Of a stretch of 64,000 nt of DNA, positions 11,049 to 54,384 are shown in pieces. A program made the translations under genes and the position numbers. Location of the stretch: assembly GCA_902784345.1 (NCBI GenBank), contig CACZUD010000003.1, positions 27,876 through 91,875 of the forward strand, given 5' to 3'. The notes below the pieces were generated by a model. It searched no databases, was not told the origin of the DNA, and saw nothing but the letters and a program-made list of their open reading frames with translations. Origin of the DNA: an uncultured Pseudomonadota bacterium (GTDB lineage Bacteria; Pseudomonadota; Alphaproteobacteria; Rs-D84). Each line of letters begins with the position of its first letter. The first letter of the stretch is position 1.

Positions 11049-11052
11049 TAAA

Positions 11053-11080: not shown

Positions 11081-11085
11081 TATTC

Positions 11086-11793: not shown

Positions 11794-11836
11794 TGTTAAA
11801 GTTTTTAATGAAAATAATCACAAAAAGGTCTGTTTT

Positions 11837-13592: not shown

Positions 13593-13593
13593 A

Positions 13594-14220: not shown

Positions 14221-14234
14221 AAAGGAAATCAGAT

Positions 14235-17258: not shown

Positions 17259-17279
17259 CGTGTTAGTTAAAGGTATAAA

Positions 17280-17876: not shown

Positions 17877-17909
17877 TAAAAAAACACCGGCATTTGCCGG
17901 TGTTTTTTT
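17877..17909. terminator. bidirectional rho-independent terminator (HAD gene / rmuC)
   Basis: acaccgg-catttg-ccggtgt, flanked by A-run and T-run. Confidence 0.75.
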
Positions 17910-18786
17910 AATCTTCTCCGAAATCCATGTCGCGAAGTTTTTCCGCGCGTGGCGTTATTTTTGAAATGGAAGTTTCAAGGTCTGCCATATCTTTTTGTGC
18001 CAGTGTAAAATGTTGGTCAACTTTTGCGGCGCGATCATTAAGGCGCGACAGGTCTGTTAATAATAAATCAAGTTCGCGTTTAATTTTGCCTGCAACCCGT
18101 TTTATTTTTATATCAGATAAAACCGCACGGATTGTGTTCAATGTCGCCCACAGTGTTGCTGGCGATACTATAAACACTTTTTTGTGTGCGGCATATTCTA
18201 TTGTGTCTGGAAACATTGTATGTAATTCCATAAATATAGATTCAGAAGCAATAAACATCATTGCGCTTTCTGCTGTTACGCCAGAGATAATGTATTTTTC
18301 TGCGATCGCGTCAATGTGTTTACGAACGTCCAATTCAAATTGCTTGCGCGCGAAACCGTCGTTCTTGTTTTCCAGTATGCGATTATAACTTTCCAGTGGA
18401 AATTTACTGTCAATTATCATATCCCCGGGTGGATAGGGCAATCTGATTACACAGTCAGGACGAACGCCGGTTGATAAAACGCTTTGAAAGGCATAGGTTT
18501 CTGGTGGCATGATATCACGAACCAAATCTTCCAGTTGTCTTTCACCAAAAGTGCCGCGCGCCTGTTTGTTGCCCATTAAAATATCTTTGAAATTCGCAAT
18601 ATCAGAACTGATATTTTTCAACTCGATTGCATTTTGCGACAACATACCCAATCTTTCAGCCAATCTTTCGCGCAGGCGTGCGTTATCTTCGCGAAGCGTC
18701 GACAAATCTATTGTGTTTTTTCGAAAAATCAGCACCAATAAAAGCACTGTGATAATAATCAAAAGGATTAAAATATAGGTTGTCAT
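17908..18786 (-). CDS. rmuC: DNA recombination protein RmuC
   Basis: N-terminal TM segment, coiled coil, then the RmuC core GERQLEDLVRDIMP...PDCVIRLPYPPGDMIIDSKFPLESY. Confidence 0.8.
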   Translation of the reverse strand: MTTYILILLIIITVLLLVLIFRKNTIDLSTLREDNARLRERLAERLGMLSQNAIELKNISSDIANFKDILMGNKQARGTFGERQLEDLVRDIMPPETYAFQSVLSTGVRPDCVIRLPYPPGDMIIDSKFPLESYNRILENKNDGFARKQFELDVRKHIDAIAEKYIISGVTAESAMMFIASESIFMELHTMFPDTIEYAAHKKVFIVSPATLWATLNTIRAVLSDIKIKRVAGKIKRELDLLLTDLSRLNDRAAKVDQHFTLAQKDMADLETSISKITPRAEKLRDMDFGED

Positions 18787-18837
18787 TTGAAATTCCTTTG
18801 CTAATATCTATATAAAGATTATAAAAAGGTTTTATAA

Positions 18838-19341
18838 ATGTTGCAAATGAAACTTTGCGGGGATTTAGTGTTGCGCGAAAAATGTTCGCCTGTGGCGGAC
18901 ATTACGCCAGAATTGCTGAATACCATGAATGAAATGGTAAATATGATGCAAGCGCAAAATGGCGTTGGGCTTGCTGCGCCCCAGGTTGGTATTACGCAAA
19001 GATTTCTGGTTATGATGGACCCTGACACCAATGAAATATATCGTATGATAAACCCGACAATTTTATCAAAAAGCGATGAAACCGTCGTTATGGAAGAGGG
19101 CTGCTTGTCTGTTCTTGGTCCTGACGGTTTGCCTGTTTATTCCAATGTTCGTCGCCCATCTTCTGTGGTTGTTGAATGGACAAATGAAACCGGTGATAAA
19201 TTAAGTGCACAAATGTCTGGTGTGCCTGCGCGCATAGTGCAACATGAAACAGACCATTTGGATGGTGTTTTGTTTATTGATTATTTATCAGGTGTAAAAC
19301 GCGAAATGTTAATGCGCAAAGTTAATCGGGGGCATAAATAA
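18838..19341 (+). CDS. def: peptide deformylase
   Basis: The three PDF motifs: GVGLAAPQ, EGCLS, QHETDHL. Confidence 0.93.
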   Translation: MLQMKLCGDLVLREKCSPVADITPELLNTMNEMVNMMQAQNGVGLAAPQVGITQRFLVMMDPDTNEIYRMINPTILSKSDETVVMEEGCLSVLGPDGLPVYSNVRRPSSVVVEWTNETGDKLSAQMSGVPARIVQHETDHLDGVLFIDYLSGVKREMLMRKVNRGHK

Positions 19342-20153
19342 TGAAACTGATTTTAATGGGGACTAACGATTTTGTGGTTCCTGTATTTGAATCTTTGGCA
19401 AAACAGCACGATATTATCGCGGTTTTTACACGCGCACCAAAACCAATGGGTCGTAAACATATATTAACACCGTCGCCAGTACATACTTGGGCAGATGCGC
19501 GTGGTTTAAAGGTTTATACATCAATTAAAGAATTTAATAACGTTTCAGATAAACCAGATATGATAATCGTCTTTTCTTATGGGGTGATTTTGCGTGATGA
19601 TGTTTTGAATGCTGCACCGTGTATAAATATTCACCCAAGTTCATTGCCAAAATATCGTGGTCCATCGCCAATTAAAACCGCAATCTTGAACGGTGATAAA
19701 GATATGGATGTCTGTTTGATGAAGATGGTTGCTGAATTGGACGCTGGCGATATTTTGATGCGTGAAAACATTGAAATAGGCGAAAATGATACTAATGCGA
19801 TTATGGAAAGCAAAGTATCAAATACTGCGATTGAAATGTTGGATAAATATCTGGCAAATCCAGAAAAATATAACGCGATTCCACAGGGCGATAATGCAAT
19901 ATATACGCGCAAATTTACTGGCGCAGATGAAATCATAGATTGGAAAAATTCCGCGCAACAAATTCATAATCAAATTCGTGCGCTTGGGTGTGGGCGAACC
20001 AGAATCAATGGTATAGATGTAAAGATTTTGGAAACGCGTATTGAAAATGCGAATTTGCAAATCATCAAAATTCAACCAAGTGGAAAAAATCCAATGGATT
20101 GGAAAAGCTTTGTAAATGGTTTGCGTGGTGCAGAGATAAAATATGGAGAATAA
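19341..20153 (+). CDS. fmt: methionyl-tRNA formyltransferase
   Basis: Formyltransferase core INIHPSSLPKYRGPSPI, ELDAGDIL, C-terminal Fmt domain. It immediately follows def. Confidence 0.88.
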   Translation: MKLILMGTNDFVVPVFESLAKQHDIIAVFTRAPKPMGRKHILTPSPVHTWADARGLKVYTSIKEFNNVSDKPDMIIVFSYGVILRDDVLNAAPCINIHPSSLPKYRGPSPIKTAILNGDKDMDVCLMKMVAELDAGDILMRENIEIGENDTNAIMESKVSNTAIEMLDKYLANPEKYNAIPQGDNAIYTRKFTGADEIIDWKNSAQQIHNQIRALGCGRTRINGIDVKILETRIENANLQIIKIQPSGKNPMDWKSFVNGLRGAEIKYGE

Positions 20154-20155
20154 CA

Positions 20156-20632
20156 ATGATTTATATAGATAAAAACGACACTCTGGGCGGTATAAAAGAT
20201 CATTATACTTCTGACTATGAAGATCATAATGAATGGTGTCAATATTGTGTTCATTATTGTGAACATTGTAATAATCCATATCGGTGGTGTTCAAAAGGTT
20301 CCTTGACTGGTTCTGTTGTAAACTTTTGTGGACATTGTGATAAGTTTTCAAATAATGGAAAAATCAATCCGTTAAAACAGTGGCTTTTGGAAAAGAGTGG
20401 TTTTGAATTTAAAAACAAAGTGGTAGAAGAAATACCAGAAGAAAAAAAGAGGTGTTTTTATTGTAAACGTTTCTTTTGTACAGAATATCACTATCCACGG
20501 CACAGAATGGTATGTTCGGGTATTTTACCAAAATGGGACTGGCTTTATTTTTTAATGCGGGAAGTAAAAGCAACAGATTGTTGCAAAAAATTTGTAATGA
20601 ATAAAATTTTTAAAGAAAAAAAAGAGAGATAA
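20156..20632 (+). CDS. hypothetical Cys/His-rich (zinc-binding-like) protein
   Basis: The ATG is 2 nt after the fmt stop. CQYCVHYCEHC, FCGHC and a C2HC-like CFYCKRFFCTEYHYPRHRMVC. No family recognised. Confidence 0.55.
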   Translation: MIYIDKNDTLGGIKDHYTSDYEDHNEWCQYCVHYCEHCNNPYRWCSKGSLTGSVVNFCGHCDKFSNNGKINPLKQWLLEKSGFEFKNKVVEEIPEEKKRCFYCKRFFCTEYHYPRHRMVCSGILPKWDWLYFLMREVKATDCCKKFVMNKIFKEKKER

Positions 20633-20635
20633 AAC

Positions 20636-20845
20636 ATGCCAGAAAACAGCGATAAAAAATTTTGTGGGTTCAAGGGTGCACATGTTGTTGTATCAGAATA
20701 TAACCAAAACGGCGAATGTAAATGTTTGTCTTGCATTGGGTATTCGTGTTCCATGTGTCAGCAATATCGTGATTTGGTAGATGAATCTGTGCGTTTGGAC
20801 CAAGTAAAATTAGAACGTTGCATAAATTGTGTAAATCAAAGATAA
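20636..20845 (+). CDS. hypothetical small Cys-rich protein
   Basis: 69 aa with 9 Cys (CKCLSCIGYSCSMC, CINC). Packed 3 nt after the previous stop and 4 nt before truA. Confidence 0.5.
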   Translation: MPENSDKKFCGFKGAHVVVSEYNQNGECKCLSCIGYSCSMCQQYRDLVDESVRLDQVKLERCINCVNQR

Positions 20846-20849
20846 AATA

Positions 20850-21608
20850 ATGACACGTTATAAAGTAAATCTTGAATATGATGGAACAAATTTAATTGGC
20901 TGGCAAGAAAATCAGCAGGGTCCATCTGTGCAATCGCTGTTGCAAGATGCCATATTCAAGTTTTGCGGTGAAAAAGTAACGGTGTTTGGTGCAGGCCGCA
21001 CAGATGCAGGCGTTCACGCGATAAATATGGTTGCGCATTTTGATTTGGATAAAGAACAAAGTGCAGAAACCGTCAAAAAGGCTCTGAATTTTTATTTGGT
21101 CGAAGAACCTGTTTCTGTTTTAAATTGTGAAAAAGTTAATGATGATTTTCATGCTCGTTTTTCTTGTGTAAAAAGGCATTATAAATACGTGGTATTAAAT
21201 CGCAGTGCACCGGTGGTCTTGCAAAAAAATCGTGTTTGGTGGGTGCCACAGAAACTTGATATTGAAAAAATGAAAACTGCTGCACAGAAATTAGTTGGTA
21301 AACATGATTTTACTTCTTTCCGTTCTGTTCAGTGTCAATCTAAATCGCCAATTAAAACTTTGGATTCTTGCACAATTACACAAAACGGTGATGAAATAAT
21401 ATTTGAATTTTCGGCGCGTTCATTCTTGCATCATCAGGTAAGAAATATGGTTGGCACCTTGGTTGAAATTGGTATAGGCAAAGATTTAGATGTTGATAAA
21501 ATATTTGAAGCTAAAAACCGCAGTGCCGCCGGTGTTAATGCGCCGGCATCAGGTCTGTTTTTTGTGCGGGCGGATTATGCCACGGACGATGATTCACAAT
21601 TTCTGTGA
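20850..21608 (+). CDS. truA: tRNA pseudouridine(38-40) synthase
   Basis: YDGTNLIGWQ, catalytic GAGRTDAGVHA, FLHHQVRNMVG. Confidence 0.92.
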   Translation: MTRYKVNLEYDGTNLIGWQENQQGPSVQSLLQDAIFKFCGEKVTVFGAGRTDAGVHAINMVAHFDLDKEQSAETVKKALNFYLVEEPVSVLNCEKVNDDFHARFSCVKRHYKYVVLNRSAPVVLQKNRVWWVPQKLDIEKMKTAAQKLVGKHDFTSFRSVQCQSKSPIKTLDSCTITQNGDEIIFEFSARSFLHHQVRNMVGTLVEIGIGKDLDVDKIFEAKNRSAAGVNAPASGLFFVRADYATDDDSQFL

Positions 21609-23556
21609 TTGTTCCGTTTGGATAAATCATTAACCCGTTTTTAAGTATTTTTCCATGACAATTTGGTGCAGTTATATCGAAAGTTGACACAATATAATTA
21701 ATGCTTTTGTCTGCACAAACTTTCTCTATATTATCCAACACAGATGTAAAGTTTTGCATATATGCCAAATTCCAATTTTTTGTTTTATAAACACAAAAAC
21801 CATGGTCGCATTTATATCGTGTATTTTTGTCTGGTTGTATTTCATTGTTATACTGATACCAAGAATTGAATGCAAAATAATGGGCGGAAGCGCGTGCTTT
21901 GTTGAACTGTAATTTTCCTTTTACATTAAAAGCAACCAATTCATGGTCGTATGTCGCATAAAATAACGGTGTGTTTCGTGTTGTGCAAATTATTGCCGCC
22001 ACAGATATAAATATTGCACATAAAATATAATTTATATTTTTGATAAAGAAATTTTTGGAATCTGTTTTTTCAATTAAAATCAAAAACAAAAGCCCAAAAA
22101 TACTTAAAAGTAAAACAGTGTTTGATACATAAGGTGTGGATAAATTCGCATATGGCAAATCTGAAATATGTGTCGCGATTGTCAGTGCAAAATTATAAAC
22201 ACTGTTTGCAATATTTAAAAGGATGTGGTTGCCTAATAATGCAGTGATTGTTCCAATAATCACCAGTGGCATAATTGCAATTGAAAATATAGGTAAAAGA
22301 ACAATGTTTCCAATTAAACTGTAAATCGGAACATAGCCAAAATGCGCGATTATAAATGGCAGGGTGAATATGGTTGCAACCAAAGCCGTCATAAATAACA
22401 TAGATATATAATGAAAGATTCTTTGCAATGGTGTACGTTTAATATATTCTTTCTTGTCAAAGAACCAGAGTAATCCAAAAATAGCCGCAAAAGATAATTG
22501 AAAACCTGCATTCATAATTGAAAAAGGATTGATAAAGAATATTATTAAAAATGCCAATGCAGCGTTACGCAAAGATAAAACACCGCGCCCCAGTATTGTC
22601 GCGATGAATATTAATGTCGCCATTAAAAACGCACGCGTTGTGGCAACACTGATGCCTGATATGCACAAATAAAATATTAATCCAAACCATGCGCAAATAA
22701 TGGCGGGATATTTTGCCGGTATGCGTTTTGATAGTGGTGAAATAGTGCGAAATATTAAATAAAATAATGCGAATAACCAACCGCCAATAAGCGTCATGTG
22801 AAAACCACTAATAGACCAAACATGTCCGACGCCGACTGACTTCCAAATATTGCTTTCGTTTTCTGGGATAACTTTTTTATAACCCAAAACCAATGCATCT
22901 GTTAAAACAGAATTTGTTTTGTTGTGAATAAAGTTGCGCATAGTGCCAGATGAATCTTGGTTTATAATTTTATAATCTTTGAAAAAGCCAGTCCCCGATA
23001 TTTTTGAAAAGTAAGCCCATCGTGCAAAATCAAAAGAATCTGGTGTGTATCGCGCAGATGGGTGAAAAATACGTGCATCGCCCGTTATTGTATCGCCAAT
23101 ATTTATTATATCTTTGCTATCTTTAATAGAAACACGAATATTTAAATTTTTATCTGGTAATTTTTCATCAATTTGTTGTGCGGGGACACTTAATAAAACG
23201 CGCACAGAATCTGGTGTAAAATCTATATCTTTGACTGTTGCGTTGATTGAAATAAAATCAAAAGAATCTTTGATTTGTATTGTGTTTGTGATTTGCGTAA
23301 AAGACATTGCATAAAAGAAACCAAACGCAAACAAAGCAATCGCGCGAACAAAAATATTTTTATATTTATAAATAATTGCCGCCAATAGTAGCGATATGAT
23401 AATTGGGAAACTAAAATCTGGTTCAACATCAATTGAAAAATAAAACGAGGCACCAAAAGCAACGACAAATGGCACCCAAAGAAATACATTTTTATACTGA
23501 AGATTCAGGATTTCTTTCATATTTGGATTATAGGATTTTATTCGCTTATCCCGCAA
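21535..23556 (-). CDS. comEC: ComEC/Rec2-family DNA internalisation channel protein (no metallo-beta-lactamase domain evident)
   Basis: 673 aa, polytopic. DUF4131-like N-terminal region, then the competence domain with VGHVWSISGFHMTLIGG. Confidence 0.8.
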   Translation of the reverse strand: MRDKRIKSYNPNMKEILNLQYKNVFLWVPFVVAFGASFYFSIDVEPDFSFPIIISLLLAAIIYKYKNIFVRAIALFAFGFFYAMSFTQITNTIQIKDSFDFISINATVKDIDFTPDSVRVLLSVPAQQIDEKLPDKNLNIRVSIKDSKDIINIGDTITGDARIFHPSARYTPDSFDFARWAYFSKISGTGFFKDYKIINQDSSGTMRNFIHNKTNSVLTDALVLGYKKVIPENESNIWKSVGVGHVWSISGFHMTLIGGWLFALFYLIFRTISPLSKRIPAKYPAIICAWFGLIFYLCISGISVATTRAFLMATLIFIATILGRGVLSLRNAALAFLIIFFINPFSIMNAGFQLSFAAIFGLLWFFDKKEYIKRTPLQRIFHYISMLFMTALVATIFTLPFIIAHFGYVPIYSLIGNIVLLPIFSIAIMPLVIIGTITALLGNHILLNIANSVYNFALTIATHISDLPYANLSTPYVSNTVLLLSIFGLLFLILIEKTDSKNFFIKNINYILCAIFISVAAIICTTRNTPLFYATYDHELVAFNVKGKLQFNKARASAHYFAFNSWYQYNNEIQPDKNTRYKCDHGFCVYKTKNWNLAYMQNFTSVLDNIEKVCADKSINYIVSTFDITAPNCHGKILKNGLMIYPNGTITEIVNHRPWHNPPAQKTDLMPAH

Positions 23557-23564: not shown

Positions 23565-23879
23565 TTATTTACCGAAAATAAAATCAGGATTTGAAGATAT
23601 TGAAATAATTGTGTCAACATCATCATTTTCAGCCGAGTGCTGATTTATGATTTTTCCGCATTTTTCACATTTATGCGTGATAATGAAACCATCTTTGTCT
23701 GGTTTAACAGATATTGGTCGCATCATGCCACCGCAATCAGACATTCTGTCGCCAGGGGTGTTATCAACGTGCCGCGACCAAAGACATTTTGGGCAATGGT
23801 TTGTATAACCATTACCAAAAACGTCTGCGCCACAGTGGGCGCAGGTAAAATCTTCAACACGTTTTGTGAATTTTTTCAT
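23565..23879 (-). CDS. RNHCP domain-containing zinc-ribbon protein
   Basis: FTCAHCGADV...GYTNHCPKCLWSRHVD...KCEKCG matches the RNHCP domain pattern. Confidence 0.65.
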   Translation of the reverse strand: MKKFTKRVEDFTCAHCGADVFGNGYTNHCPKCLWSRHVDNTPGDRMSDCGGMMRPISVKPDKDGFIITHKCEKCGKIINQHSAENDDVDTIISISSNPDFIFGK

Positions 23880-25649: not shown

Positions 25650-26783
25650 ATGAAGAGAGTTTTTTCATTTTTTATATCACTTTTTATATTGTGTGGTATT
25701 GCAGATGCCGCAGATTACCGGGCTGCATTGGTCGCCGATATTGACAGCGGACGTGTTTTATATCAAGAAAAAGCAAACGAATTAAATTATCCGGCGTCTC
25801 TTACAAAAATAATGACTTTGTATTTAACTTTTGATGCGCTGGAACACAAAAGATTACACTTGGACGATTATTTGATAGTTTCGCAATATGCGGCAGATGC
25901 ACAGCCCGTGAAACTTGGTCTTGCCGCGGGCAGCAAGATTAAGGTTGAAGATGCCATAAAGGCAGTCGCAGTACATTCTGCAAACGATGTTGCGCGCGTT
26001 TTGGCTGAAAATTTAAAAGGTGGAAAAGAGGGCAGTTTTGCGAACCTTATGACACGCGTTGCAAACGAAATAGGTTTGCAACATACAAATTTTGAAAATT
26101 CTTCTGGTTTGCCAAATGATGATCATATGTCCACCGCGCGCGATATTGCGTTGTTGTCTATGGCGGTATATAAACACTTTCCGCAATATTGGAAATATTT
26201 TGGAATTAAATCGTGGACTTATGACGGAAAAACCTATACGAACGGAAATCGTTTGTTGGGCAGTTATCCTGGGTGTGATGGTATGAAGACGGGCTTTACA
26301 AACAAGTCAAAATATTCGCTGGTTGCAACAGCTGTGCGTGATGGACATCATTTGATTGCTGTTGTGCTGGGCGCAGAAAATAAAGATGTTCGGGCAAGTG
26401 TTGCGACAAAAATGTTAAATCTGGGCTTTTCAAAACTTGGTGTATCAAACGCGAATTATAATGTGCCACAGCAAACATATACCGTTGCGCCAAACAGTGC
26501 AAATCCAATTGCAAAATACGCCACAGATAAAAAGCCAGAACCAAAGATAAATGTTGCGGTATCTGCTGGTGGTGTCGGTGTTCAATTTGGTGCGTTTTCT
26601 TCTTATTCTTCTGCGCAAAACCAGGTGAAAAAGGTAAAATCTGCAACCGGATTAAATGCGGATATAGAACAAAACGAAACTGGTCTGTATCGTGTGCGTG
26701 TTAAGGGGTTGTCCGAAAGTGCAGCACAAAACGCTAAAAATTTAGCAGTTGCAAACGGCATAGATTGTTATATCTTTCATTAA
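25650..26783 (+). CDS. D-alanyl-D-alanine carboxypeptidase (S11/PBP5 family) with C-terminal SPOR domain
   Basis: Signal peptide. SxxK (ASLTKIM), SxN (HSAND), KTG (MKTGFT). The C-terminus reads VGVQFGAFSSYSSAQ...GLYRVRVKGLSESAAQNAKNLAVANGIDCYIF, a SPOR-like fold signature. Confidence 0.85.
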   Translation: MKRVFSFFISLFILCGIADAADYRAALVADIDSGRVLYQEKANELNYPASLTKIMTLYLTFDALEHKRLHLDDYLIVSQYAADAQPVKLGLAAGSKIKVEDAIKAVAVHSANDVARVLAENLKGGKEGSFANLMTRVANEIGLQHTNFENSSGLPNDDHMSTARDIALLSMAVYKHFPQYWKYFGIKSWTYDGKTYTNGNRLLGSYPGCDGMKTGFTNKSKYSLVATAVRDGHHLIAVVLGAENKDVRASVATKMLNLGFSKLGVSNANYNVPQQTYTVAPNSANPIAKYATDKKPEPKINVAVSAGGVGVQFGAFSSYSSAQNQVKKVKSATGLNADIEQNETGLYRVRVKGLSESAAQNAKNLAVANGIDCYIFH

Positions 26784-32124: not shown

Positions 32125-32150
32125 AAAACGCCCAAACGGGCGTTTTTTAT
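32123..32150. terminator. bidirectional terminator after yidC
   Basis: acgccc-aaac-gggcgt with flanking A-run and T-run. Confidence 0.7.
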
Positions 32151-32485
32151 TTTTTGCTTAAATGATTCAAAAGGGCTTGCGGGGTTTGGATTTTTATATT
32201 TTTGATACCGCATGCCTGTTTTGTAAATTGAACACAGGTAAGGCAGGGTATGGCGCTTTTTTCTTGTAGCTTGGTTGAGTATTTAATAAAAACCCATCCA
32301 TGTTGTTTTAATAATCTTAAATCGCTTTTTTTTATAACAATTTTTAATGTTTTTTTCATATGCACGAATTGATAAATTGTCGCATTGTTTTTATTAACCA
32401 CTATTGGTGCACAGTGTTTATATTTTTTACAAAATATTTTCGCATAAAATTTATTTGAATAATTTGAAAAACCTATGTACAGCAT
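32147..32485 (-). CDS. hypothetical protein
   Basis: 112-aa basic ORF, 24 nt downstream of 32510..32863. No family recognised. Confidence 0.45.
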   Translation of the reverse strand: MLYIGFSNYSNKFYAKIFCKKYKHCAPIVVNKNNATIYQFVHMKKTLKIVIKKSDLRLLKQHGWVFIKYSTKLQEKSAIPCLTCVQFTKQACGIKNIKIQTPQALLNHLSKK

Positions 32486-32509: not shown

Positions 32510-32863
32510 TTAATCAACCAACCAGCCTTTTTTTGATGCGTACGCGCCAAGTATATCCATCGAAGATTTCCAAAGTGCGCTTGCGCGATTTTCAGAATAA
32601 ATATATTGATGTGGTGCGCGTTTTTTATCTCCAAATTTTTTCATGACAGCCAGTTGTTCTTCTGTTAATTTTCCGCACAAGTAAAGTTTTGTAATTAAAC
32701 TTTCTACATCCAATATTTCACATGGACGACGTATAGAAGATTTGTGGTAACGAAATCCGTTTTGAATTGATTTAGAATACAAAAACCAGAACCAGAGTTG
32801 TTCTGCGTTTTGGAATTTTTCTGTTGCGTTTATTTCGTCTTTTTTTATTTTGGTATTTAACAT
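32510..32863 (-). CDS. hypothetical protein
   Basis: 117-aa ORF with an AAGGAGAAAG RBS. W/F-rich N-terminal segment EQLWFWFLYSKS. No family recognised. Confidence 0.5.
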   Translation of the reverse strand: MLNTKIKKDEINATEKFQNAEQLWFWFLYSKSIQNGFRYHKSSIRRPCEILDVESLITKLYLCGKLTEEQLAVMKKFGDKKRAPHQYIYSENRASALWKSSMDILGAYASKKGWLVD

Positions 32864-33037: not shown

Positions 33038-33064
33038 ATTAAAAAATCCGCATTTGCGGATTTT
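33038..33064 (-). terminator. rho-independent terminator of the virB8-10 operon
   Basis: aatccgc-aaat-gcggatt immediately after the virB10 stop, followed by a T-run on the minus strand. Confidence 0.75.
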
Positions 33065-35500
33065 TTAATTAACTTCTATCGGCGGGAAACAATCGCCACC
33101 CGTATCCGGACAACAATTGAATCCAGCTTCGCCCATATCTGTATAAGTTTCACCAGCGCAGCATCCGTTTAAATCAGGTGCACTGCCGTCATCACATGTC
33201 AACACTTCTTCTGCTGCGGCTGCTTCTGCAACAAAATTGTCAGGTTTTGCCCATGGATTAACAATATTGTCATTATCATCGTATTTAAGACCAAGAATAT
33301 CTTGATTATATGCTTTTTTCTGTTCTGCGGTTTGATCAGATATGTAATCACCGGTGGTTTGATTAAATGTAACCGTTCCATACTTGTTTTCGGCCTGTGT
33401 TTTTACGCTTTCGTTATATGCAGCCTGTTTAGCATTGTTTTTCGCCTGATAGTTTTGTGATTCACAGTACATATAAACTGTTCTGTAATCATAACCAGAT
33501 TGTGCCCAGTTATCACCAATTGTTACTTTATTGTTTTTGGTAGTGCAATATTGCATCAAATCAAATGAACGAACCTGACCAACCCATGAAGAATCCGTTG
33601 TATCAATAGTTACTTTGTTTTTCAATTTTGCCCACTCACGACGTGGATTTTCGCCGTATGTTGTAAATGCACATTTTTTACCTTTGTTCGCATTTTCATC
33701 ACATGTAACAATCAAATCAACCGGTGAAAAAACATTTATGCGCGTACCGGCGGCAATTGAAAATGGTGGTACAGTATTATCAATTGCATCAACAATTAAT
33801 TTTTGAGTGATTTTATTCCATGTATTAATAACTTCTTGTTTTGCCATTTCTGATGAACGAATTGTTCCTGATTGAACAATTGTATTATTATCCAAATCTA
33901 TTTGGTTTATAACAGTATCTGCAATTGGTGCAATCATATTAACTGCCGCAGGAACCAAAGATGTCAATATCGGCATAACCATTTGTTCTACATAATCAGT
34001 ACTGCCGTGTCCTGGGACACCCATACGACCTTGGGCATCGGCCGAATATGGATCCTGATCGCCGTCAAAATTAAATTCAACACCATCTGGACGGATAAAT
34101 TGGTACCATTTAATATTCATACGACCAAATGCTTGGTATGGCCCAGGCAGATTGCCGTCCAAATACCCCATTAACAATGTTCCCGTGGGTAATATTATTG
34201 TGCGGCCATCATCAGAATAAACATTTCTGTCCACCGTTGCACGAACAGGTATGCTGTAGTTTTTACTTGGATCACATTGTCCTGATTGTACTTTTGAACA
34301 ACCATAAACACTGGGGTCTGCGCGCACTTCAGAAACAATAGTTGCCGGAATTGGTTTAAATTGGCGCAATATAAATGTTCTGTCATACGGACGAGATGAT
34401 ACGACGGATTCTGCCCCTACTGCAGAGCCTTTTAATGCTTCATAGTCATAACTGTTATCTTTATCAAAGATAAGTCCGCCTTCTTTATCGTTCCCGCCTG
34501 TTTCCCAAATTGGTTCGCCACCAAAAGAACCGTCTGCATTTGGCGCAACAAAAGAACGTGGTGCTGTCAATTTTGGAACAGATAAATTTCTGGAACGAAC
34601 ATTACGATATCCAATATGGTCTGAATCTGTGCCGATTTTAGAACCATCTTTTAATGAAGTTATAATACCTGTTGTTATATCGTATTTTCCAGTTGGATTC
34701 GAACAATCTTTGTCTGAAAAAGGATGAAAATAATTCGCGCCACGTTCTGGTTTTATCCAACCAATTTGACGGCCTGATTGATCATAACCTGGAATTGCAA
34801 ATTCAGAACATTTTTCAGGTGGCAAAACAAAATCATCTTTTTCTTTCAACGGATTTCTTACTGCGACAGTTTTTATTTCTTTTGCTGCTTTTTCTACAAT
34901 TGGTTCTGGTTCTTCGTCTATAAAATCTTCTTCGTCTTCTTCTTCTGGTTCTTCAATAACAACTGGTTTAGGCGCAACCACAGGTTTCTTTTCTATAACA
35001 GGTTCAACTTTTTTTGGTTCTTCTTTTTTCCACGAAGAATACTTAACAACAACTTCTTGTGTTTTTATCAATTCAGGCTGTGATTCAATGTGCCAATTTA
35101 TTTTCAGTGTTGCTTCTGATTCTTTTTGGACAAGTGTTGGTTTATAAATAATCTTGATTATGCACAAATCAGTTGCACTATCACGACAATTATCTGTCGT
35201 TTTTATTCCGTCTGCTTTGATATCAATATCTTTAATGATAACAGGTACAGTAACCGAAACAGTGATGCTTTCATCATTAGATTTACCAACTTCTGTTTCT
35301 GTTAAATCGACAATTTGTGGATCAACAGAAAAAGAAACATTTTCGTTCATTTCTTTTATTTGTGTGTTATCTGATTTATGTCCCAATAACAAGAACAACA
35401 AAATAATTACAACAATAAACGCCGCCCCCAGCAATATCCATTGAACATGTTTTGGGGTATTGGTTCTTAATTCTTTAAATTGTTGTTTTAAATTTTTCAT
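33065..35500 (-). CDS. virB10: VirB10/TrbI-family type IV secretion protein, expanded (811 aa)
   Basis: N-terminal TM segment WILLGAAFIVVIILLFLLLG. Pro/Glu-rich linker (EEPKKVEPVIEKKPVVAPKPVVIEEPEEEDEED). Conserved core ILPTGTLLMGYLDG...IKWYQFIRPDGVEF...ADAQGRMGVPGH...IAAGTRINVFSPVDL. About 210 extra C-terminal residues ending in a Cys-rich tail. Confidence 0.85.
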   Translation of the reverse strand: MKNLKQQFKELRTNTPKHVQWILLGAAFIVVIILLFLLLGHKSDNTQIKEMNENVSFSVDPQIVDLTETEVGKSNDESITVSVTVPVIIKDIDIKADGIKTTDNCRDSATDLCIIKIIYKPTLVQKESEATLKINWHIESQPELIKTQEVVVKYSSWKKEEPKKVEPVIEKKPVVAPKPVVIEEPEEEDEEDFIDEEPEPIVEKAAKEIKTVAVRNPLKEKDDFVLPPEKCSEFAIPGYDQSGRQIGWIKPERGANYFHPFSDKDCSNPTGKYDITTGIITSLKDGSKIGTDSDHIGYRNVRSRNLSVPKLTAPRSFVAPNADGSFGGEPIWETGGNDKEGGLIFDKDNSYDYEALKGSAVGAESVVSSRPYDRTFILRQFKPIPATIVSEVRADPSVYGCSKVQSGQCDPSKNYSIPVRATVDRNVYSDDGRTIILPTGTLLMGYLDGNLPGPYQAFGRMNIKWYQFIRPDGVEFNFDGDQDPYSADAQGRMGVPGHGSTDYVEQMVMPILTSLVPAAVNMIAPIADTVINQIDLDNNTIVQSGTIRSSEMAKQEVINTWNKITQKLIVDAIDNTVPPFSIAAGTRINVFSPVDLIVTCDENANKGKKCAFTTYGENPRREWAKLKNKVTIDTTDSSWVGQVRSFDLMQYCTTKNNKVTIGDNWAQSGYDYRTVYMYCESQNYQAKNNAKQAAYNESVKTQAENKYGTVTFNQTTGDYISDQTAEQKKAYNQDILGLKYDDNDNIVNPWAKPDNFVAEAAAAEEVLTCDDGSAPDLNGCCAGETYTDMGEAGFNCCPDTGGDCFPPIEVN

Positions 35501-35506
35501 TTTCTT

Positions 35507-36982
35507 TTACTGTATTCTTACCACATGACAACTTGCACCACTGAACTTTAACAATTGATCACACAATCTTTGTGCCGTATCAATGTCAGACAATGGACCA
35601 ATACGTAAACGATACAGACGTGCAGTTGCAGAATCAGACCCCAGATCGCCAACACCTTGTTCGTCAACCGCGAAAAACACACTGTTCTTGTACGGGCTTA
35701 AAATACCTTCGCCGTCATCGCCACTGAATTTAGCCAACAAACTGGTCCAATAATCATTCAATGCCTTTACAGATGTATCAGATTTTAATTCAACCGCAAC
35801 ACCTGTCTGATTGCTGGATATTAATGGAATGTTTGTTTGTGGTAAATAAGAACCTGCCGTAGTACGCGCTGTTGGAATCATGCTAACACCGTTGGCGCCG
35901 CCGGACACAGCATTTGGTTGGTCATATATATATATTGGTGTTGCACTGTAATCCGTAATGCTTTGGCTTATTGCATACTGTTCATCGCCATATGCAACGT
36001 TATTCAAAGATTGGTTTGATGCCAAAGATTGTGCAACGTTTGCTTCTGCCAATGCCATAACAGATGCGGTATCTGCAATCAAGAAAGGTTTAGCACGTTT
36101 TTTGATGCAAACAATTCTTTGTCCACTGCGCAATACCATATCGCCAACTGCTTCAACAATCAATAAACGTCCATCTTCGCCGTCTGTACGGAAACCAACA
36201 GGGCTTTCGCCACCTTCGACCAAAAGCGATACTACTGGGCGTTGGGTCATAGAAATAACTTTGTCGCCAAAATCAATATATGTAAATATACGGTCACGCC
36301 ATACGCGTTCTGGCGCAATAACATAATCATCCGGATTTGGAACGAATATATCTAAATCAAAGCGGAATTCAGAAGGATCTATTTTCATCGTTTTTATCCA
36401 TCCGTAATCTTCGCCATCAACACCGACTGTATTTGTTGCAGGTGCCGCAGATTTTGTGAACACAGAACCCATTGCACCACCAGATGTTGTCGATGTGTTT
36501 TGTATTGATTTTGATGCGCCACCCAAAGAAACATCAACTTGAGAATAAGTGATTTCACTGGAATTCACAGGGTATGCACGCAAATAAAATATATAAGTAT
36601 TACCAGATTGGCCCGTAACAATCATATTCGTATCATTTCCTGCATTACTGGAAGCAGGAGTAATGTACATTGTATTACCACCTTTGTCAGGTTTGATTTC
36701 AAACAAACCATCGTTTCCAACAACCGCATCGGCAATCTTTTCGCCGTTTGGCAGCGTTACCAAAGTTGCCATACCTGCACGTGTTTTGATTGGCAGAACA
36801 GTTCCTGTTGACCAAGTAAGATTCGCATAACCTGGTTTTGTTGAACCTGCGGTCATATTTGCATTTGGATTATCCCATGCGGCCTGAAAAGTGGCTTCTG
36901 CATGTGCAGGAAACGCACAGCATAACACAGCCAACAAAGAAATACTCAATTTACATGTTTTTACAAAAGTCATGTTTCCCAA
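35507..36982 (-). CDS. virB9: VirB9/TrbG/CagX-family type IV secretion protein fused to a C-terminal SPOR-like domain
   Basis: Signal peptide. VirB9 N-terminal domain (NMIVTGQSGNTYIFYLRAY) and C-terminal domain (RIFTYIDFGD...RPVVSLLVEGGESPVGFRTDG...LRSGQRIVCIKK). Then about 190 extra aa ending ...ARLYRLRIGPLSDIDTAQRLCDQLLKFSGASCHVVRIQ. Confidence 0.85.
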   Translation of the reverse strand: MGNMTFVKTCKLSISLLAVLCCAFPAHAEATFQAAWDNPNANMTAGSTKPGYANLTWSTGTVLPIKTRAGMATLVTLPNGEKIADAVVGNDGLFEIKPDKGGNTMYITPASSNAGNDTNMIVTGQSGNTYIFYLRAYPVNSSEITYSQVDVSLGGASKSIQNTSTTSGGAMGSVFTKSAAPATNTVGVDGEDYGWIKTMKIDPSEFRFDLDIFVPNPDDYVIAPERVWRDRIFTYIDFGDKVISMTQRPVVSLLVEGGESPVGFRTDGEDGRLLIVEAVGDMVLRSGQRIVCIKKRAKPFLIADTASVMALAEANVAQSLASNQSLNNVAYGDEQYAISQSITDYSATPIYIYDQPNAVSGGANGVSMIPTARTTAGSYLPQTNIPLISSNQTGVAVELKSDTSVKALNDYWTSLLAKFSGDDGEGILSPYKNSVFFAVDEQGVGDLGSDSATARLYRLRIGPLSDIDTAQRLCDQLLKFSGASCHVVRIQ

Positions 36983-37001
36983 TCCTTACCTTTTCAAATC
37001 T

Positions 37002-37664
37002 TTACCAAGACGCTGTATCTGAATCAAGTGGGTCGCCCCGTCCGTCCAGAATATCATATTGAACAACCTGAATTCCCAGCGGATTATCGCGCAGTTTTTC
37101 CAGATTTTCCAACGTTCCAGATATCTTTTCATCCAGATCAGATTTTATCCTTATTTGTATCTTATAATTTTTTTGCGTGGTCTGTCCACCACTATTTTTA
37201 CAAACCCAAGTAAATTTTACATGATATGTGTCATTGTTCATCTTTAAAACAGGTTTGTCGTTATTTGGACTTGAAAAATTAACATTGCATGAAATGTTTG
37301 GTAGTTGGTCACTTAGAGCGAATTCTTTGTAAATAGGGGTCTTAACCATTTTTGAAAAAACTTCATTTGAAGACCATGGTTTAACAATTCTGGACCAATT
37401 TTTGCGTGTCATACCAGGTGTTGCGTACAAAGTATTGCGTGCAATTACATATTCGCGAACAAAACCTTCTTTGTAATTATTCAGTGCTATTTTATTGTTG
37501 CTGTTTGGAACAAGAGGTTCAATAACCACATTTGCAGAACGGGTAGGGGTGTATAAAAAGAAAACTTCTGGTCTTTCAAGTGGCATCATCTTCATCAAAG
37601 TGAACACCAGACAACCCAAAACAACAACGGCCGTTGCCAACACAAAGGCCAGAATTCTGGACAT
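37002..37664 (-). CDS. virB8: VirB8-family type IV secretion protein (start uncertain; the ORF extends to 37820 with a TTG)
   Basis: TM segment ILAFVLATAVVVLGCLVFTL, then a VirB8 periplasmic NTF2-like domain: FVREYVIARNTLY ... YHVKFTWV ... RDNPLGIQVVQYD. Confidence 0.8.
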   Translation of the reverse strand: MSRILAFVLATAVVVLGCLVFTLMKMMPLERPEVFFLYTPTRSANVVIEPLVPNSNNKIALNNYKEGFVREYVIARNTLYATPGMTRKNWSRIVKPWSSNEVFSKMVKTPIYKEFALSDQLPNISCNVNFSSPNNDKPVLKMNNDTYHVKFTWVCKNSGGQTTQKNYKIQIRIKSDLDEKISGTLENLEKLRDNPLGIQVVQYDILDGRGDPLDSDTASW

Positions 37665-37954
37665 TAAAACCGGCGGTTCAACTGTTTTTGCCACAACATC
37701 TCCTACATATTTATATCGATTGTAGAAAATTTTGTTTGCATAGTGCAAGTAAAAAATAACGATTTTTTGATTTGTTTTATCTTTTTTATTGGAAAAAGTT
37801 TTTCTTTTTCGCTTGCGCAAAAAATTAAAAACCTTTATAATATTTCCGCTTGATTTTTAATAATGGTGTGCTATGCTTTGACCGATTATCAGTATAAAAT
37901 GGCTTAAATGCTGGGGTGTGGTTATGGGTACAGACGCTTAAAAACACGAATTAG

Positions 37955-51329: not shown

Positions 51330-51877
51330 TTTCCCTCCCACGGAGGGGAGGGCTAGTTCGGAGTCGAGAGCAAATTCCCCGCCTGGGGCGGGGTGGATTG
51401 TGCGTCAGCACAAGACGGGGAGGGTTGATATTAGAATCTATTAATATTATGTTTTATCCATAGCAACACATTTGACATATCTTGTTTTACATCTTTATCT
51501 GATATCCTTACTACATGTATCCCCAAAGATTCCATATATTCATCTCGCTCTTTATCGTATTCGTATTTATCATCGTGCGACCAACCATCAATTTCTATAA
51601 CTAGTTTCTTTTCACGACAATAAAAATCTGCAATATAATTTCCGATTGGTTTTTGTCGCGTAAACCGAACCCCTAATTTGCAATGTTGCAACTCTTGCCA
51701 CAGTAAAACCTCTGACAAATTACCAGCTTTACGATTGGCTCTCGACAGACCTTTAAGTTGTTTATTATATGCATACATATTTCAATTTTATGTGTAATTT
51801 ATAGCGGTTGCAATATAAATATTCAACCCTCCCCGTCACCTTCGGTGCCACCCCGCCCCGGGCGGGGAATACAAGCA
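51330..51877. mobile_element. DUF559-endonuclease cassette bounded by GC-rich imperfect inverted repeats, inserted at the plsX 3' end
   Basis: Left 51374-51432 (attccccgcctggggcggggtgg...gacggggagggttgatat) versus the reverse complement of right 51819-51870 (attccccgcccggggcggggtgg...gacggggagggttgaatat). Strongly GC-rich against an AT-rich background. Flanked by the duplicated plsX tail. Confidence 0.55.
51431..51778 (-). CDS. DUF559 (Vsr-like, PD-(D/E)xK fold) endonuclease domain protein
   Basis: 115 aa. SEVLLWQELQ...LGVRFTRQKPIGNYIADFYCREKKLVIEIDGWSHD...DKERDEYMESLGIHVVRISDKDV is the typical DUF559 pattern. Confidence 0.8.
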   Translation of the reverse strand: MYAYNKQLKGLSRANRKAGNLSEVLLWQELQHCKLGVRFTRQKPIGNYIADFYCREKKLVIEIDGWSHDDKYEYDKERDEYMESLGIHVVRISDKDVKQDMSNVLLWIKHNINRF

Positions 51878-52008: not shown

Positions 52009-54384
52009 TTATTCAACTGTGCAACCTGTTAACGTTATTCTGCCAGTAGGTACACCACTTACCATTTCTTCTGTTAAGACATCTGTATATCCGTCCGGAC
52101 AAGAGCAACGTGTTACCTGACCACCAGTAGATACTGTCTGGACGCTGTTGTTAAATTTTGGACATACGGTGCACTTTGTTGTCAATCCGTTGTCGTCCAA
52201 ATAAGTACCAGAAGGACAATTGATAGATATACTTGCAACCCAATCGTTCATTGCGCGCAATGTTAACTTGGTTCCGTCTTTTGGTGTATAACCATTGACC
52301 GACATACATGTTGTAATTTCTGCTACGCATGCATTAACAGCGGTACGAGATACCGTAGATGTGGTATTAGAATCGTCATATCCATTTGAAGACAGGCATG
52401 ATTGTACATCACCACGGCATCCTTCGGCATAATCTGCAATCAAAGCATCCTGTTGAACCTTTATCTTTGGCAAAGTGGTGTCCAAATACATGCGAACTGC
52501 TTCGTTGTCAATGACATATTCTGAACCTGTTTTGTTGCTTTTAATTTTGAATGTATAATCTTGACATTGTTTCATAATGGATGCGCACATACCATGAACT
52601 TTGTCATTGTTGTCAATATAACCAATTTTTTGCAACAAGTAAAAGGCTATATTAGGTGTTGATAAATTCTTGTCGTAATCGGCTTTCCAGTCGCCCAATG
52701 CTTCTTGGACATATCCGCCTAAGTTTTCTGTTTGACCCTTGCTCCATGCATTAAGGCCGGAACCATAATTCCATGTTGCATACAAATCATACATACCACC
52801 ACTGGTCCAGCTTGCATAACCGTTAGCGCTGTCTATATCTGATTGATTAACAGTCTGTCCACCAGAAATACCAGGTGTAGATCCTTTTACAACTTCACCG
52901 TTTGCAATGAATTTGCCGGTTGGATCCAAACATAATTCATAGTCAGAACCGCAAACATATTCGTCTTGCATACATGAATCAATTGCCGCAACACAACCAC
53001 GCAAATCATAAGAATTCTTGTTTTGTGTCAACAACAAACGCGCCTGTTGCAAGATGTTTGTTGCATTGAACACATTGTTTTTCATTTCTTTGTTTGCTTC
53101 GGTTAATGCACGTTCATACGCAATACATTGCTTGTCAATTTCCAAATCATAAGAATTTGTAATTACGTTTGCATCAATACCTTGGGCGGTACAAGAATTC
53201 AAAACAGCCGTTTTGCAACGATTCGTCGCTGTTTTATACAATTGTTCGCCACGTTGATTTGAAACACTGGTTGTATTTGTTGTTTTTGTGCTGCCCAAGA
53301 ATGAATTCAAATCGAATCCAGATGTAAAGTCAGCATCCAATAATCCGTTTAAATCCAACGAAAGACCACTGGTCATTTCGTATGTAGAAGAAGCATTTGG
53401 TGTTGAAATATCAACGACTTTACGTTTAATTGCATCCAAACTGGTCTTTAACTGTGAAGAATCAGAATTAGATTTCATCGCCAATTCTGCTTCTGTTTCT
53501 GCAAACAGAGCTTCAATTTGTGGACCACTTAAACCAATATATCTGATTTTTTGAATGGCTTCTTGGAATTGTTCTGTTGCAGCCTCTAAAGCTTTTTCTG
53601 TTTTCTCATAATTCTTTAAGTTCTTAGAGCAAGAACAACGACCCTGATTATCATCCAAAACATTACAATAATTATCCATACATGCTGCATATTGTGCCTG
53701 ACAGTATTCTGTCAATTCTGCAACCGCTGTCAAAGTAGATGTTGTGGAAGAAACGTCTTCTTCTGTGATAACAGGTGTAGTAGATGTCGTAGATGTTGAT
53801 AAACGAATACCTGAACTTGGAGAACGACGTGTTGCGACACTTACGCGTGCAGTATTAGAAGGATTATATAAAGAAGAGTTCGAACCTTCTATTACAGTTG
53901 CCTGATTAGATGGCAATGATCTGCTTGTTGCAGACATAACAGTATTACCAGCCGTCCCAACACGTGCAGTTACTGGCTTGGCGGTCTGTGCGCCGCGTGC
54001 CGTCACGCTGGCACGAGAAGAAACTGTAGAAGAAGGTCTGTTAACAACGCCTGTCGTACGTGCAGCACGTGAAGTTGTTCCGCGAGCCACTGTTGCGCGT
54101 GGAGATGATGCCATTGCACGGGAAGATGTGTTTGTGCGTGCAGAACCAGAATTTGCCGCGGACGATATTGCACGAGATGCAGTTGTAGAACGGTTTATCG
54201 TATTACGTTGGGCAACAGCCTGTGGTTGAACAATTTCTTGTTCTTTTGTGGCAACTTCACCGTCATTAAGCATTTCATCAGTGTATTCGACAATTTCGTC
54301 GTAATAAACCGGTGCAACCTCTGCAAATGCAGGCAAAACCAGTATTCCACTTAATACAGTAATAAATCTTTTCATGTTAGACAT
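52009..54384 (-). CDS. hypothetical exported protein, 791 aa (basic Ser/Thr/Arg/Ala-rich low-complexity region plus Cys-rich body)
   Basis: Signal peptide MKRFITVLSGILVLPAFA. Residues about 57-200 are low complexity, of the type SRAISSAANSGSARTNTSSRAMASSPRATVARGTTSRAARTTG. More than 30 Cys, including YCQAQYAACMDNYC...RCSCS, and a C-terminal CPSGTYLDDNGLTTKCTVCP furin-like repeat. Confidence 0.7.
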   Translation of the reverse strand: MSNMKRFITVLSGILVLPAFAEVAPVYYDEIVEYTDEMLNDGEVATKEQEIVQPQAVAQRNTINRSTTASRAISSAANSGSARTNTSSRAMASSPRATVARGTTSRAARTTGVVNRPSSTVSSRASVTARGAQTAKPVTARVGTAGNTVMSATSRSLPSNQATVIEGSNSSLYNPSNTARVSVATRRSPSSGIRLSTSTTSTTPVITEEDVSSTTSTLTAVAELTEYCQAQYAACMDNYCNVLDDNQGRCSCSKNLKNYEKTEKALEAATEQFQEAIQKIRYIGLSGPQIEALFAETEAELAMKSNSDSSQLKTSLDAIKRKVVDISTPNASSTYEMTSGLSLDLNGLLDADFTSGFDLNSFLGSTKTTNTTSVSNQRGEQLYKTATNRCKTAVLNSCTAQGIDANVITNSYDLEIDKQCIAYERALTEANKEMKNNVFNATNILQQARLLLTQNKNSYDLRGCVAAIDSCMQDEYVCGSDYELCLDPTGKFIANGEVVKGSTPGISGGQTVNQSDIDSANGYASWTSGGMYDLYATWNYGSGLNAWSKGQTENLGGYVQEALGDWKADYDKNLSTPNIAFYLLQKIGYIDNNDKVHGMCASIMKQCQDYTFKIKSNKTGSEYVIDNEAVRMYLDTTLPKIKVQQDALIADYAEGCRGDVQSCLSSNGYDDSNTTSTVSRTAVNACVAEITTCMSVNGYTPKDGTKLTLRAMNDWVASISINCPSGTYLDDNGLTTKCTVCPKFNNSVQTVSTGGQVTRCSCPDGYTDVLTEEMVSGVPTGRITLTGCTVE

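Follow-up and report, generated by a model that had tools for sequence, protein, structure and literature searches.

A conserved chromosomal virB8-virB9-virB10 trio with a VirB9-SPOR fusion in the reduced-genome alphaproteobacterium Enterousia

The virB8-virB9-virB10 locus and its products

We describe a trio of virB8-, virB9- and virB10-like genes, related to those of type IV secretion systems (T4SSs), in the core chromosome of an Enterousia genome. The stretch analysed (the window) comprises 64,000 nt of contig CACZUD010000003.1 (GCA_902784345.1), positions 27,876-91,875; all coordinates given here are window positions. Three minus-strand open reading frames (ORFs) in a row fill 33065-37820 (272, 491 and 811 amino acids (aa) as raw ORFs), and the genes within them are packed like an operon, 28 nt and 6 nt apart (Table 1). 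The original prediction of three clear VirB8, VirB9 and VirB10 genes is borne out, since each product scores above the curated cut-off of its Pfam family: VirB8 matches PF04335 (E 1.8e-8; 34.9 bits against a cut-off of 23.2), VirB9 matches CagX/VirB9 PF03524 (E 4.8e-22; 79.2 bits against 34.2), and VirB10 matches TrbI/VirB10 PF03743 over aa 384-592 (E 3.5e-15; 56.8 bits against 35). The extent predicted for the operon, 33065-37820, holds for the genes but not for the start of virB8. A TTG at 37820 was ruled out in favour of a GTG at 37694, which is the most likely start, having an AGGAG ribosome-binding site at 37704-37700 and agreeing with the 230-aa public gene call. The start of virB9 is an ATG at 36973, giving 488 aa.

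The predicted strong terminator is also present: the hairpin AAAAAAUCCGCAAAUGCGGAUUUUUU has a perfect stem followed by a T-run and folds at -16.8 kcal/mol (z = -5.06; 0 of 200 shuffled sequences fold as well). A simple consensus scan overlooked this terminator, since the T-tail is absorbed into the stem as its A/T extension. Upstream of virB8 there are promoter-like elements, TTGCAC (37748-37743) and TACAAT (37724-37719) with an 18-nt spacer, which amount to a resemblance only and were not detected by the consensus scan; reading of the 260-bp region upstream of virB8 found no VirB7-like lipoprotein ORF. The trio is flanked by lspA-yidC on one side and by tRNA-Trp-secE-nusG-rplKA on the other, a core-chromosome context rather than that of a plasmid or an integrative and conjugative element, as had been proposed.

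Table 1. Features of the virB8-virB9-virB10 locus, in window positions
Feature	Position	Strand	Length or location	Basis
VirB8-like gene	37002..37694	(-)	230 aa	Pfam, start codon and ribosome-binding site, public gene call
VirB9-SPOR fusion gene	35507..36973	(-)	488 aa	Pfam, AlphaFold, Foldseek
VirB10-like gene	33065..35500	(-)	811 aa	Pfam TrbI, NCBIfam VirB10
Intrinsic terminator hairpin	33038..33064	(-)	directly 3' of virB10 stop codon	sequence and folding energy
Intergenic region upstream of virB8, common to divergent tRNA-Trp	37695..37954	(-)		sequence reading
orf117, small cytoplasmic protein of unknown family	32510..32863	(-)		conservation at Enterousia loci
orf112, small protein of unknown family	32147..32485	(-)		conservation at Enterousia loci

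VirB9 carries a SPOR domain (PF05036, E 3.9e-4) at its C-terminus. A signal peptide (cleavage at about AHA/E, aa 25/26) is followed by the N-terminal domain (aa 30-150) and the C-terminal domain (aa 200-295) of VirB9, and beyond aa 295 by a disordered linker and the SPOR domain (aa 390-488), which has two conserved Cys residues. The AlphaFold model of the protein has three confident domains joined by disordered linkers, with pLDDT values of about 90 and 88 in the two VirB9 domains. Together, AlphaFold and Foldseek predict the two-domain VirB9 fold, with an N-terminal beta-sandwich and a C-terminal domain of the type that binds VirB7 and VirB10. Foldseek matches to the model are Xanthomonas citri VirB9 (6gyb_B, E 6.8e-17) and R388 TrwF (E 1.5e-16), with DotH and CagX also matched; by domain, TM-scores are 0.78-0.79 for the N-terminal domain of TrwF, 0.80 for the C-terminal domain of pKM101 TraO (2ofq) and, for the last domain, 0.71 for the SPOR domain of RlpA (6i09_A). 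A second protein encoded in the window, a D-Ala-D-Ala carboxypeptidase (Peptidase_S11, 25650-26783), also has a C-terminal SPOR domain (E 7.8e-9). Two SPOR-bearing envelope proteins are therefore encoded inside 11 kb, and SPOR targeting to peptidoglycan is used by at least two proteins.

VirB10 is bitopic and more elaborate. It begins with a short cytoplasmic tail whose motif TPKHxQW is nearly invariant across the genus (T15, P16, Q20 and W21 are invariant), followed by a transmembrane helix (aa 21-39) and an ASH/PapD-like Ig domain (aa 55-160), the only part of the protein that Foldseek matches to its model identified. A Pro/Glu-rich linker (aa 160-225) then leads to a conserved domain without a Pfam match (aa 230-295) and to the TrbI/VirB10 domain (aa 384-600), in which two long predicted helices, 502-532 and 548-575, lie at the position expected of the antenna. 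The protein ends in a 210-aa extension that is specific to Enterousia and has a near-invariant terminal Cys-rich motif, with the consensus TCxDGxxPDxNGCCxGExYTDMGxxGFNCCPxxGGDCFPPI. The AlphaFold model of VirB10, built with close homologues, is confident only outside the TrbI domain, with pLDDT below 50 in the barrel region.

VirB8 crosses the membrane once, by a helix near its N-terminus (about aa 10-35), and carries a VirB8 domain in the periplasm. Its NPxG motif reads NPLG at aa 204-207, and N204, P205 and G207 are invariant. The topology of the trio is canonical, with a bitopic VirB8, a secreted VirB9, and a bitopic VirB10 with a Pro-rich linker and predicted antenna helices. Family profiles were needed to relate the proteins to structures in the PDB: single-sequence searches gave no match for VirB8 and marginal matches only for VirB9 and VirB10. 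With a family profile, VirB8 matches Bartonella VirB8 (4lso, E 1e-13), and also Brucella VirB8 and TrwG, but Rickettsia typhi RvhB8-II at only E 8e-4. The NCBIfam VirB9 and VirB10 models were both matched below their equivalog cut-offs.

Conservation in Enterousia and the VirB9-SPOR clade

Enterousia belongs to the alphaproteobacterial order Rs-D84 and has genomes of 0.75-1.0 Mb that show no accumulation of pseudogenes; it has no tricarboxylic acid cycle, no respiration, no standard transporters for sugars, amino acids or peptides, and lacks many biosynthetic pathways, and dependence on a partner is predicted (PMC12306168). The same survey makes no mention of secretion systems (PMC12306168), and a literature search on RF32 and T4SSs found nothing. 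The closest genome matches to the VirB9 described here, with 85-91% identity, come from metagenome-assembled genomes that include 'Candidatus Enterousia sp.' and rumen RUG bins, and an identical protein is encoded on an ENA metagenome contig of 152,954 bp.

We examined the trio locus, with 10 kb on either side, in the 80 Enterousia species-representative genomes that were returned by a genome-collection scan with VirB9; in these species the scan returned nothing but the syntenic locus. Apart from contig-end cuts, the trio lies in the same slot, between secE-nusG and yidC-lspA, in all 80 genomes. The gene order is rplA-rplK-nusG-secE, virB8-virB9-virB10-orf117-orf112, yidC-lspA-kefB-ksgA-recR, with exceptions that consist of insertions, a few undetected genes, and contig ends. 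All three genes were found by tblastn at 80 of 80 loci, and VirB10 is a single complete ORF of 600-900 aa at all but four, two of which are contig-end cuts. Identity across the genus is 68-91% for VirB9, similar to that of ksgA or recR, 33-78% for VirB8 and 29-74% for VirB10 (best tblastn segment). Ratios of nonsynonymous to synonymous substitution (dN/dS), computed by the Nei-Gojobori method between the window and five close species at dS of about 1, are 0.05-0.10 for VirB9, 0.14-0.17 for VirB10 and 0.18-0.21 for VirB8, as compared with 0.07-0.13 for ksgA, yidC and recR; VirB9 is constrained as strongly as these housekeeping genes. Because the operon occupies the same slot in 80 genomes and has low dN/dS, it is a functional, vertically inherited feature of the core genome, consistent with the proposal of a chromosomally fixed trio.

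These data bear directly on the idea that the trio descends from a lost conjugative element as a decaying relic without present function. Partial T4SS loci occur commonly in genomes, and this one is short of accessory genes; but the completeness of the trio across the genus, purifying selection on all three genes (dN/dS 0.05-0.21) and the lack of pseudogene accumulation in the genome (PMC12306168) effectively refute this explanation, which we regard as highly improbable.

Two small genes accompany the trio in most of the genus. The gene orf117 lies immediately downstream of virB10 at 73 of the 80 loci, with 55-85% identity, a dN/dS of about 0.1 and a conserved motif, EKFQNAEQLWFWFLYSKS...RAPHQY; orf112 follows it at 72 of the 80, with 30-66% identity. 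Neither has a counterpart in the sampled relatives outside Enterousia, nor a match in Pfam, NCBIfam or PHROG. A conserved His (HCAP) and Cys (TCV) in the orf112 product are reminiscent of a permuted papain or NlpC-P60-like enzyme, and may point to a small enzyme of this kind. Membership of the system is uncertain for orf112, and also for orf117, which the terminator and two more hairpins separate from virB10. In some species (L002 and L038), insertions beside the operon were checked for T4SS genes and instead encode variable Cys-rich secreted proteins, which may be surface or contact proteins: one with repeats of the form C..GYYLPAN..C..CP (L002, 7710-9163), and a 751-aa protein that is Ser/Thr-rich and Cys-rich (L038, 15073-17328). 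Cys-rich content recurs in the insertion proteins and in the C-terminus of VirB10.

When 1.84 billion representative proteins were searched exhaustively with VirB9, only 483 were returned at E <= 1e-3. Aligned members that reach the C-terminus, including plasmid-borne ones, have a SPOR-like domain with the two conserved Cys residues, and the trio belongs to a small, distinct alphaproteobacterial VirB9-SPOR clade. A literature search found no description of a VirB9-SPOR fusion, and its presence as the mark of a whole clade is new. The fusion suggests an alternative, VirB7-independent way to anchor a core complex to the cell wall.

Arranged by genomic context, the relatives form a reduction series. 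At one end are systems of the conjugative type: a Microvirga locus (L085) and an Erythrobacter aureus plasmid (L172) have the order VirB2-VirB3-VirB4-x-x-B7like-B8-B9-B10-B11-VirD4. A DnaB-like gene lies ahead of this set in both, and the Erythrobacter plasmid also has a MobA/MobL relaxase gene upstream; a further locus (L171) has a likely B8 followed by B9-B10-B11-D4. An abundant human-gut and rumen lineage, represented by 80 metagenome loci (L089-L168) together with L173 and L174, has VirB4 and, after four or five unnamed genes, B8-B7like-B8-B9, then one or two giant VirB10 genes and B11; VirB4 is about 8 kb upstream, and no VirD4 adjoins these clusters. The giant VirB10 proteins of this lineage are 1,400-2,700 aa long, are often duplicated, and contain beta-flower, DUF3659 and RHS-type repeats (for example at L127, 11485-20279, and L174, 11611-19764), and one VirB11 sequence of the lineage is found on about 1000 contigs, the longest being 1.9 Mb. 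An environmental locus (L084; JGI 3300049386, 7164-21015) reads comM-B7like-B8-B9-B10-B11-gltX-comEC, and a further relative (L169) has a B7-like gene and two additional B8-like genes, then B8, B9, an unnamed gene of 283 aa and B10, with lspA following on the opposite strand and no B11. At the other end of the series, L086/87 has rpsB-tsf-B8-B9-B10 only, L088 has B9-B10, and Enterousia has B8-B9-B10 only.

Wherever it is found in the clade, VirB11 directly follows VirB10; in Enterousia the terminator, orf117 and orf112 take that position. A B7-like gene of 54-66 aa is common to most of the sampled relative loci and has no match in the Enterousia sequences. The B7-like gene, the second B8 and VirB11 have evidently been lost from the Enterousia locus. 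The nearest annotated homologues of the window proteins are encoded on alphaproteobacterial plasmids and megaplasmids, with 33-37% identity for VirB9 and about 30% for the TrbI domain of VirB10 (67-77 bits), and the example that was inspected is conjugative; with the Erythrobacter plasmid VirB10, the window VirB10 shares 30% identity over 184 aa (76 bits). From this relationship, the trio appears to be a reduced, domesticated derivative of an alphaproteobacterial VirB-type system. What is new is that the stripped trio is conserved throughout a genus.

Missing genes and the possible function of the trio

The original prediction held that no other T4SS gene is present in the 64 kb, and two kinds of search agree with it. 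A Pfam scan covered the plausibly coding ORFs of at least 100 aa in the window, other than overlapping opposite-strand ORFs and the ribosomal-protein and rpoB/C genes, which were identified from their translations or the public gene call; it revealed no T4SS ATPase, pilin or relaxase in the rest of the window, the other ORFs being housekeeping genes, ComEC, or without a Pfam match. Queries specific to the clade, namely the VirB2, VirB3, VirB4, B7-like, VirB11 and VirD4 proteins of the relatives and the unnamed proteins encoded between their B4 and B8 genes, had no match in the window or in the 10 kb beyond its right end, and none within 10 kb on either side of the trio in the 80 Enterousia genomes. 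In these 74 kb of the source genome, no T4SS ATPase, pilin, B6-like gene or relaxase was found. When a relative's VirB11 was compared with 5.8 billion proteins, the best 120 matches all came from another gut lineage, with 66-71% identity, except for one near-identical relative of the query, and are uninformative on Enterousia.

The outer-membrane core complexes of T4SSs are regarded as components of machines driven by ATP. We tentatively favour the explanation that the Enterousia trio is a reduced envelope-spanning conduit or scaffold that functions without VirB11 and VirD4. In such a structure, by homology of the domains, VirB10 would be anchored in the inner membrane with its antenna helices forming an outer-membrane pore, VirB9 would form a periplasmic and outer-membrane ring around VirB10 that the SPOR domain ties to peptidoglycan, and VirB8 would be a scaffold near the inner membrane. 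Genome reduction would have stripped the locus of the flanking VirB7-like lipoprotein, the second VirB8 and VirB11, and, further out, of VirB4 and VirD4, while VirB10 would have acquired its genus-specific Cys-rich C-terminal extension. We think, from gene content, that the module is probably no longer a conjugation machine or a VirD4-coupled effector machine, because B7, the B8 paralogue and B11 have been lost and VirD4 is not adjacent in the closest chromosomal relatives that bear VirB4 and VirB11. Assuming that the three proteins do assemble into a core complex, the leading candidate roles would be import or cell contact, including passage of DNA across the outer membrane towards ComEC.

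This explanation includes a stronger case, which we consider possible but distinctly more doubtful, in which the trio is a true orphan: across the order (Enterousia and relatives such as the L086/87 lineage), VirB8, VirB9-SPOR and the elaborated VirB10 would form an ATPase-independent, stand-alone envelope-spanning complex. A core co-opted in this way would be a conduit through the outer membrane or a contact device, either passive or energised by other means, and might serve the import of DNA or nutrients towards ComEC, or attachment to partner cells through the Cys-rich C-terminus of VirB10.

Several observations weigh against a reduced conduit or scaffold. We know of no T4SS-derived machine that works without VirB4. 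VirB4 has been described as the only ubiquitous T4SS protein (PMC4027160). The 74 kb searched are about 8% of one Enterousia genome of about 0.9 Mb, and rvh genes, the precedent for dispersal, are scattered in islets (PMC4676284). The retained VirB8 and the near-invariant cytoplasmic tail of VirB10 hint at an inner-membrane partner. Gene calls in the 9 kb upstream of the L084 B7-B11 operon include no VirB4, so splitting may occur within the VirB9-SPOR clade. Lastly, pore formation by VirB10 is proposed from homology, with the TrbI domain modelled at low confidence.

Of these, the rvh precedent, the L084 locus, the retained VirB8 and the conserved cytoplasmic tail of VirB10 lend some weight to a different explanation, that the trio is part of a T4SS which is complete but split into islets in the rvh style, with VirB3, VirB4, VirB6, VirB11 and VirD4 encoded elsewhere in the genome. 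Such a system would deliver effectors to, or make contact with, a partner that the metabolically dependent Enterousia relies on, in keeping with the predicted partner dependence of the genus (PMC12306168), and the B8-B7-B8-B9-B10-B11 order of the relatives resembles the rvh islet (PMC4676284). However, VirB11 directly follows VirB10 in rvh and at every clade locus that reaches far enough, except in Enterousia, L086/87 and L169, so that deletion is more parsimonious than relocation in Enterousia. Moreover, the B7-like gene and the B8 paralogue are missing as well, even the closest chromosomal relatives with nearby VirB4 and VirB11 genes have no adjoining VirD4, and no further T4SS gene was found in the 74 kb of the source genome. 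We therefore consider a split system rather unlikely.

A third explanation, which overlaps with the conduit that we favour and is the leading specific function for it, is that the trio forms a ComB-like channel that takes DNA across the outer membrane to ComEC, with or without a ComB4-like ATPase encoded elsewhere, and so supplies nucleotides or DNA to an auxotrophic cell. As predicted, a ComEC gene lies at a distance of about 10 kb: the product of 21535-23556 (673 aa), 9.5 kb from the end of virB10, matches Pfam Competence (E 2e-49) and DUF4131, and has no metallo-beta-lactamase domain. It is followed by a gene for a small RNHCP zinc-ribbon protein (23565-23879). Retention of ComEC in a 0.9-Mb genome, and so near the trio, is consistent with DNA uptake, as is the arrangement at L084, where comM is directly upstream of the operon and comEC is 2.7 kb downstream. 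The absence of VirB11 and VirD4 from the locus fits the composition of ComB, and ComB10 is the best match among solved structures to a VirB10 family profile (E 2e-19). The one genome survey of the order reports type IV pili for another reduced lineage and not for Rs-D84 (PMC12306168), which could also be taken in favour of a ComB-like route.

Nevertheless, the sequences show no specific affinity to ComB. Against Helicobacter pylori ComB10, the window VirB10 reaches only 18 bits, as compared with the 67-77 bits against VirB10 of Rhizobiales and Erythrobacter plasmids, and the NCBIfam VirB10 model outscores the ComB10 model on the same protein (60.8 bits, E 1.2e-16, against 42.5 bits). We therefore rejected the ComB ancestry that the PDB profile match might imply; that match probably reflects which structures have been solved rather than kinship. 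Among the approximately 10 lineages sampled, flanking by comM and comEC was found only at L084; more than 80 loci from other relatives have neither gene close to the operon, and the linkage of ComEC to the trio across Enterousia represents a single inherited arrangement. ComEC is the sole competence gene in the window, and counterparts of the ComB2-3-4 operon and of ComB6/7 were not found in the 74 kb. ComEC also occurs widely among bacteria without known competence. With support that is circumstantial only, we regard ComB-like DNA uptake as unlikely.

A core trio kept under strong purifying selection across a genus with such small genomes, after the neighbouring VirB7 and VirB11 genes were lost, could represent a naturally pared-down T4SS variant, which would help to define the smallest core that functions; were VirB4 also absent, it could be the first case of a T4SS core working alone. 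The trio may also bear on the survival of Enterousia, in that it may help to explain how an abundant uncultured rumen and gut lineage obtains DNA or metabolites from its partners (PMC12306168).

Other parts of the window contain further genes of note. A 518-aa outer-membrane protein that matches the Protochlamydia Pom porin family (PF17251, E 1.4e-8) is encoded at 60908-62464; such a protein is unusual among Alphaproteobacteria, and might suit the envelope of a host- or partner-associated cell. An apparent four-gene operon at 6288-10094 specifies proteins of 327 aa (unknown), 294 aa and 343 aa, together with a trypsin-like protease. The 294-aa protein belongs to no Pfam family, and its C-terminus matches phage endolysin/transglycosylase PHROGs (E 2e-12). 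The operon may be a cell-wall remodelling module; the T4SS-region proteins of the relatives, used as queries, had no match to it. A 791-aa protein (52009-54384; 788 aa in the call of the identical right-flank contig) has no Pfam or PHROG match and is unlike the unnamed T4SS-region proteins of the relatives, and a lone DUF559 gene (Vsr-like endonuclease fold, 51431-51778) lies between plsX and the gene for this protein.

Comparison with known systems

The plasmid-borne VirB/VirD4 systems (P-type, MPF-T) of Erythrobacter aureus (NZ_CP031358) and Microvirga megaplasmids are like the Enterousia locus in having the order B8-B9-B10, and Microvirga VirB9 has the same SPOR-like C-terminal domain as Enterousia VirB9. 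These systems additionally have VirB2, VirB3, VirB4, B6-like genes, a B7-like lipoprotein, VirB11 and VirD4, and the Erythrobacter plasmid has its relaxase, none of which is found at the Enterousia locus. By contrast, Enterousia VirB10 has extra domains, including the 210-aa Cys-rich extension, that set it apart from plasmid VirB10, and its gene lies in the core chromosome.

Like the trio, the rvh system is chromosomal, vertically inherited, of the VirB type, and found in host-dependent Alphaproteobacteria with reduced genomes. The R. typhi islet consists of rvhB8-II, then rvhB7-rvhB8-I-rvhB9-II-rvhB10-rvhB11 (PMC4676284), and the gut and rumen relatives of the trio, with their duplicated VirB8, resemble this order (PMC4676284). 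The rvh system, which had been put forward as an alternative precedent, is therefore a close parallel for these relatives, with VirB8-B7like-VirB8-VirB9-VirB10-VirB11 and a VirB4 gene upstream. The likeness is one of gene order, and does not in itself imply common descent with rvh. Enterousia itself differs from rvh in having no VirB8 duplication, B7, B11 or D4 at the locus, its VirB8 profile fits Bartonella and Brucella VirB8 far better than R. typhi RvhB8-II, and it belongs to Rs-D84 rather than to Rickettsiales.

The ComB system of Helicobacter and Campylobacter was the other suggested precedent, and only part of the analogy stands. Both ComB and the Enterousia trio have a B8-B9-B10 operon without VirB11 or VirD4, and ComEC in the genome. 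ComB is, however, a system of Epsilonproteobacteria with no specific sequence affinity to the trio, whose nearest homologues are alphaproteobacterial plasmid VirB proteins; no Campylobacter or Helicobacter system is among the organisms listed as nearest annotated homologues of the window proteins. H. pylori ComB has no VirB11 or VirD4, uses the ATPase ComB4, which is encoded in a second operon, and also requires ComB2-4 and ComB6/7. The analogy extends to gene composition but not to ancestry.

The Bartonella Trw system offers a further parallel. It is a VirB-type T4SS without a coupling protein that has been repurposed to form non-translocating, host-cell-binding surface structures (PMC4676284). 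Although Trw retains VirB4, VirB11 and amplified pilus genes, none of which was seen in the Enterousia sequence examined (74 kb and 80 loci), it provides a precedent for a T4SS core that has been kept for adhesion or contact.

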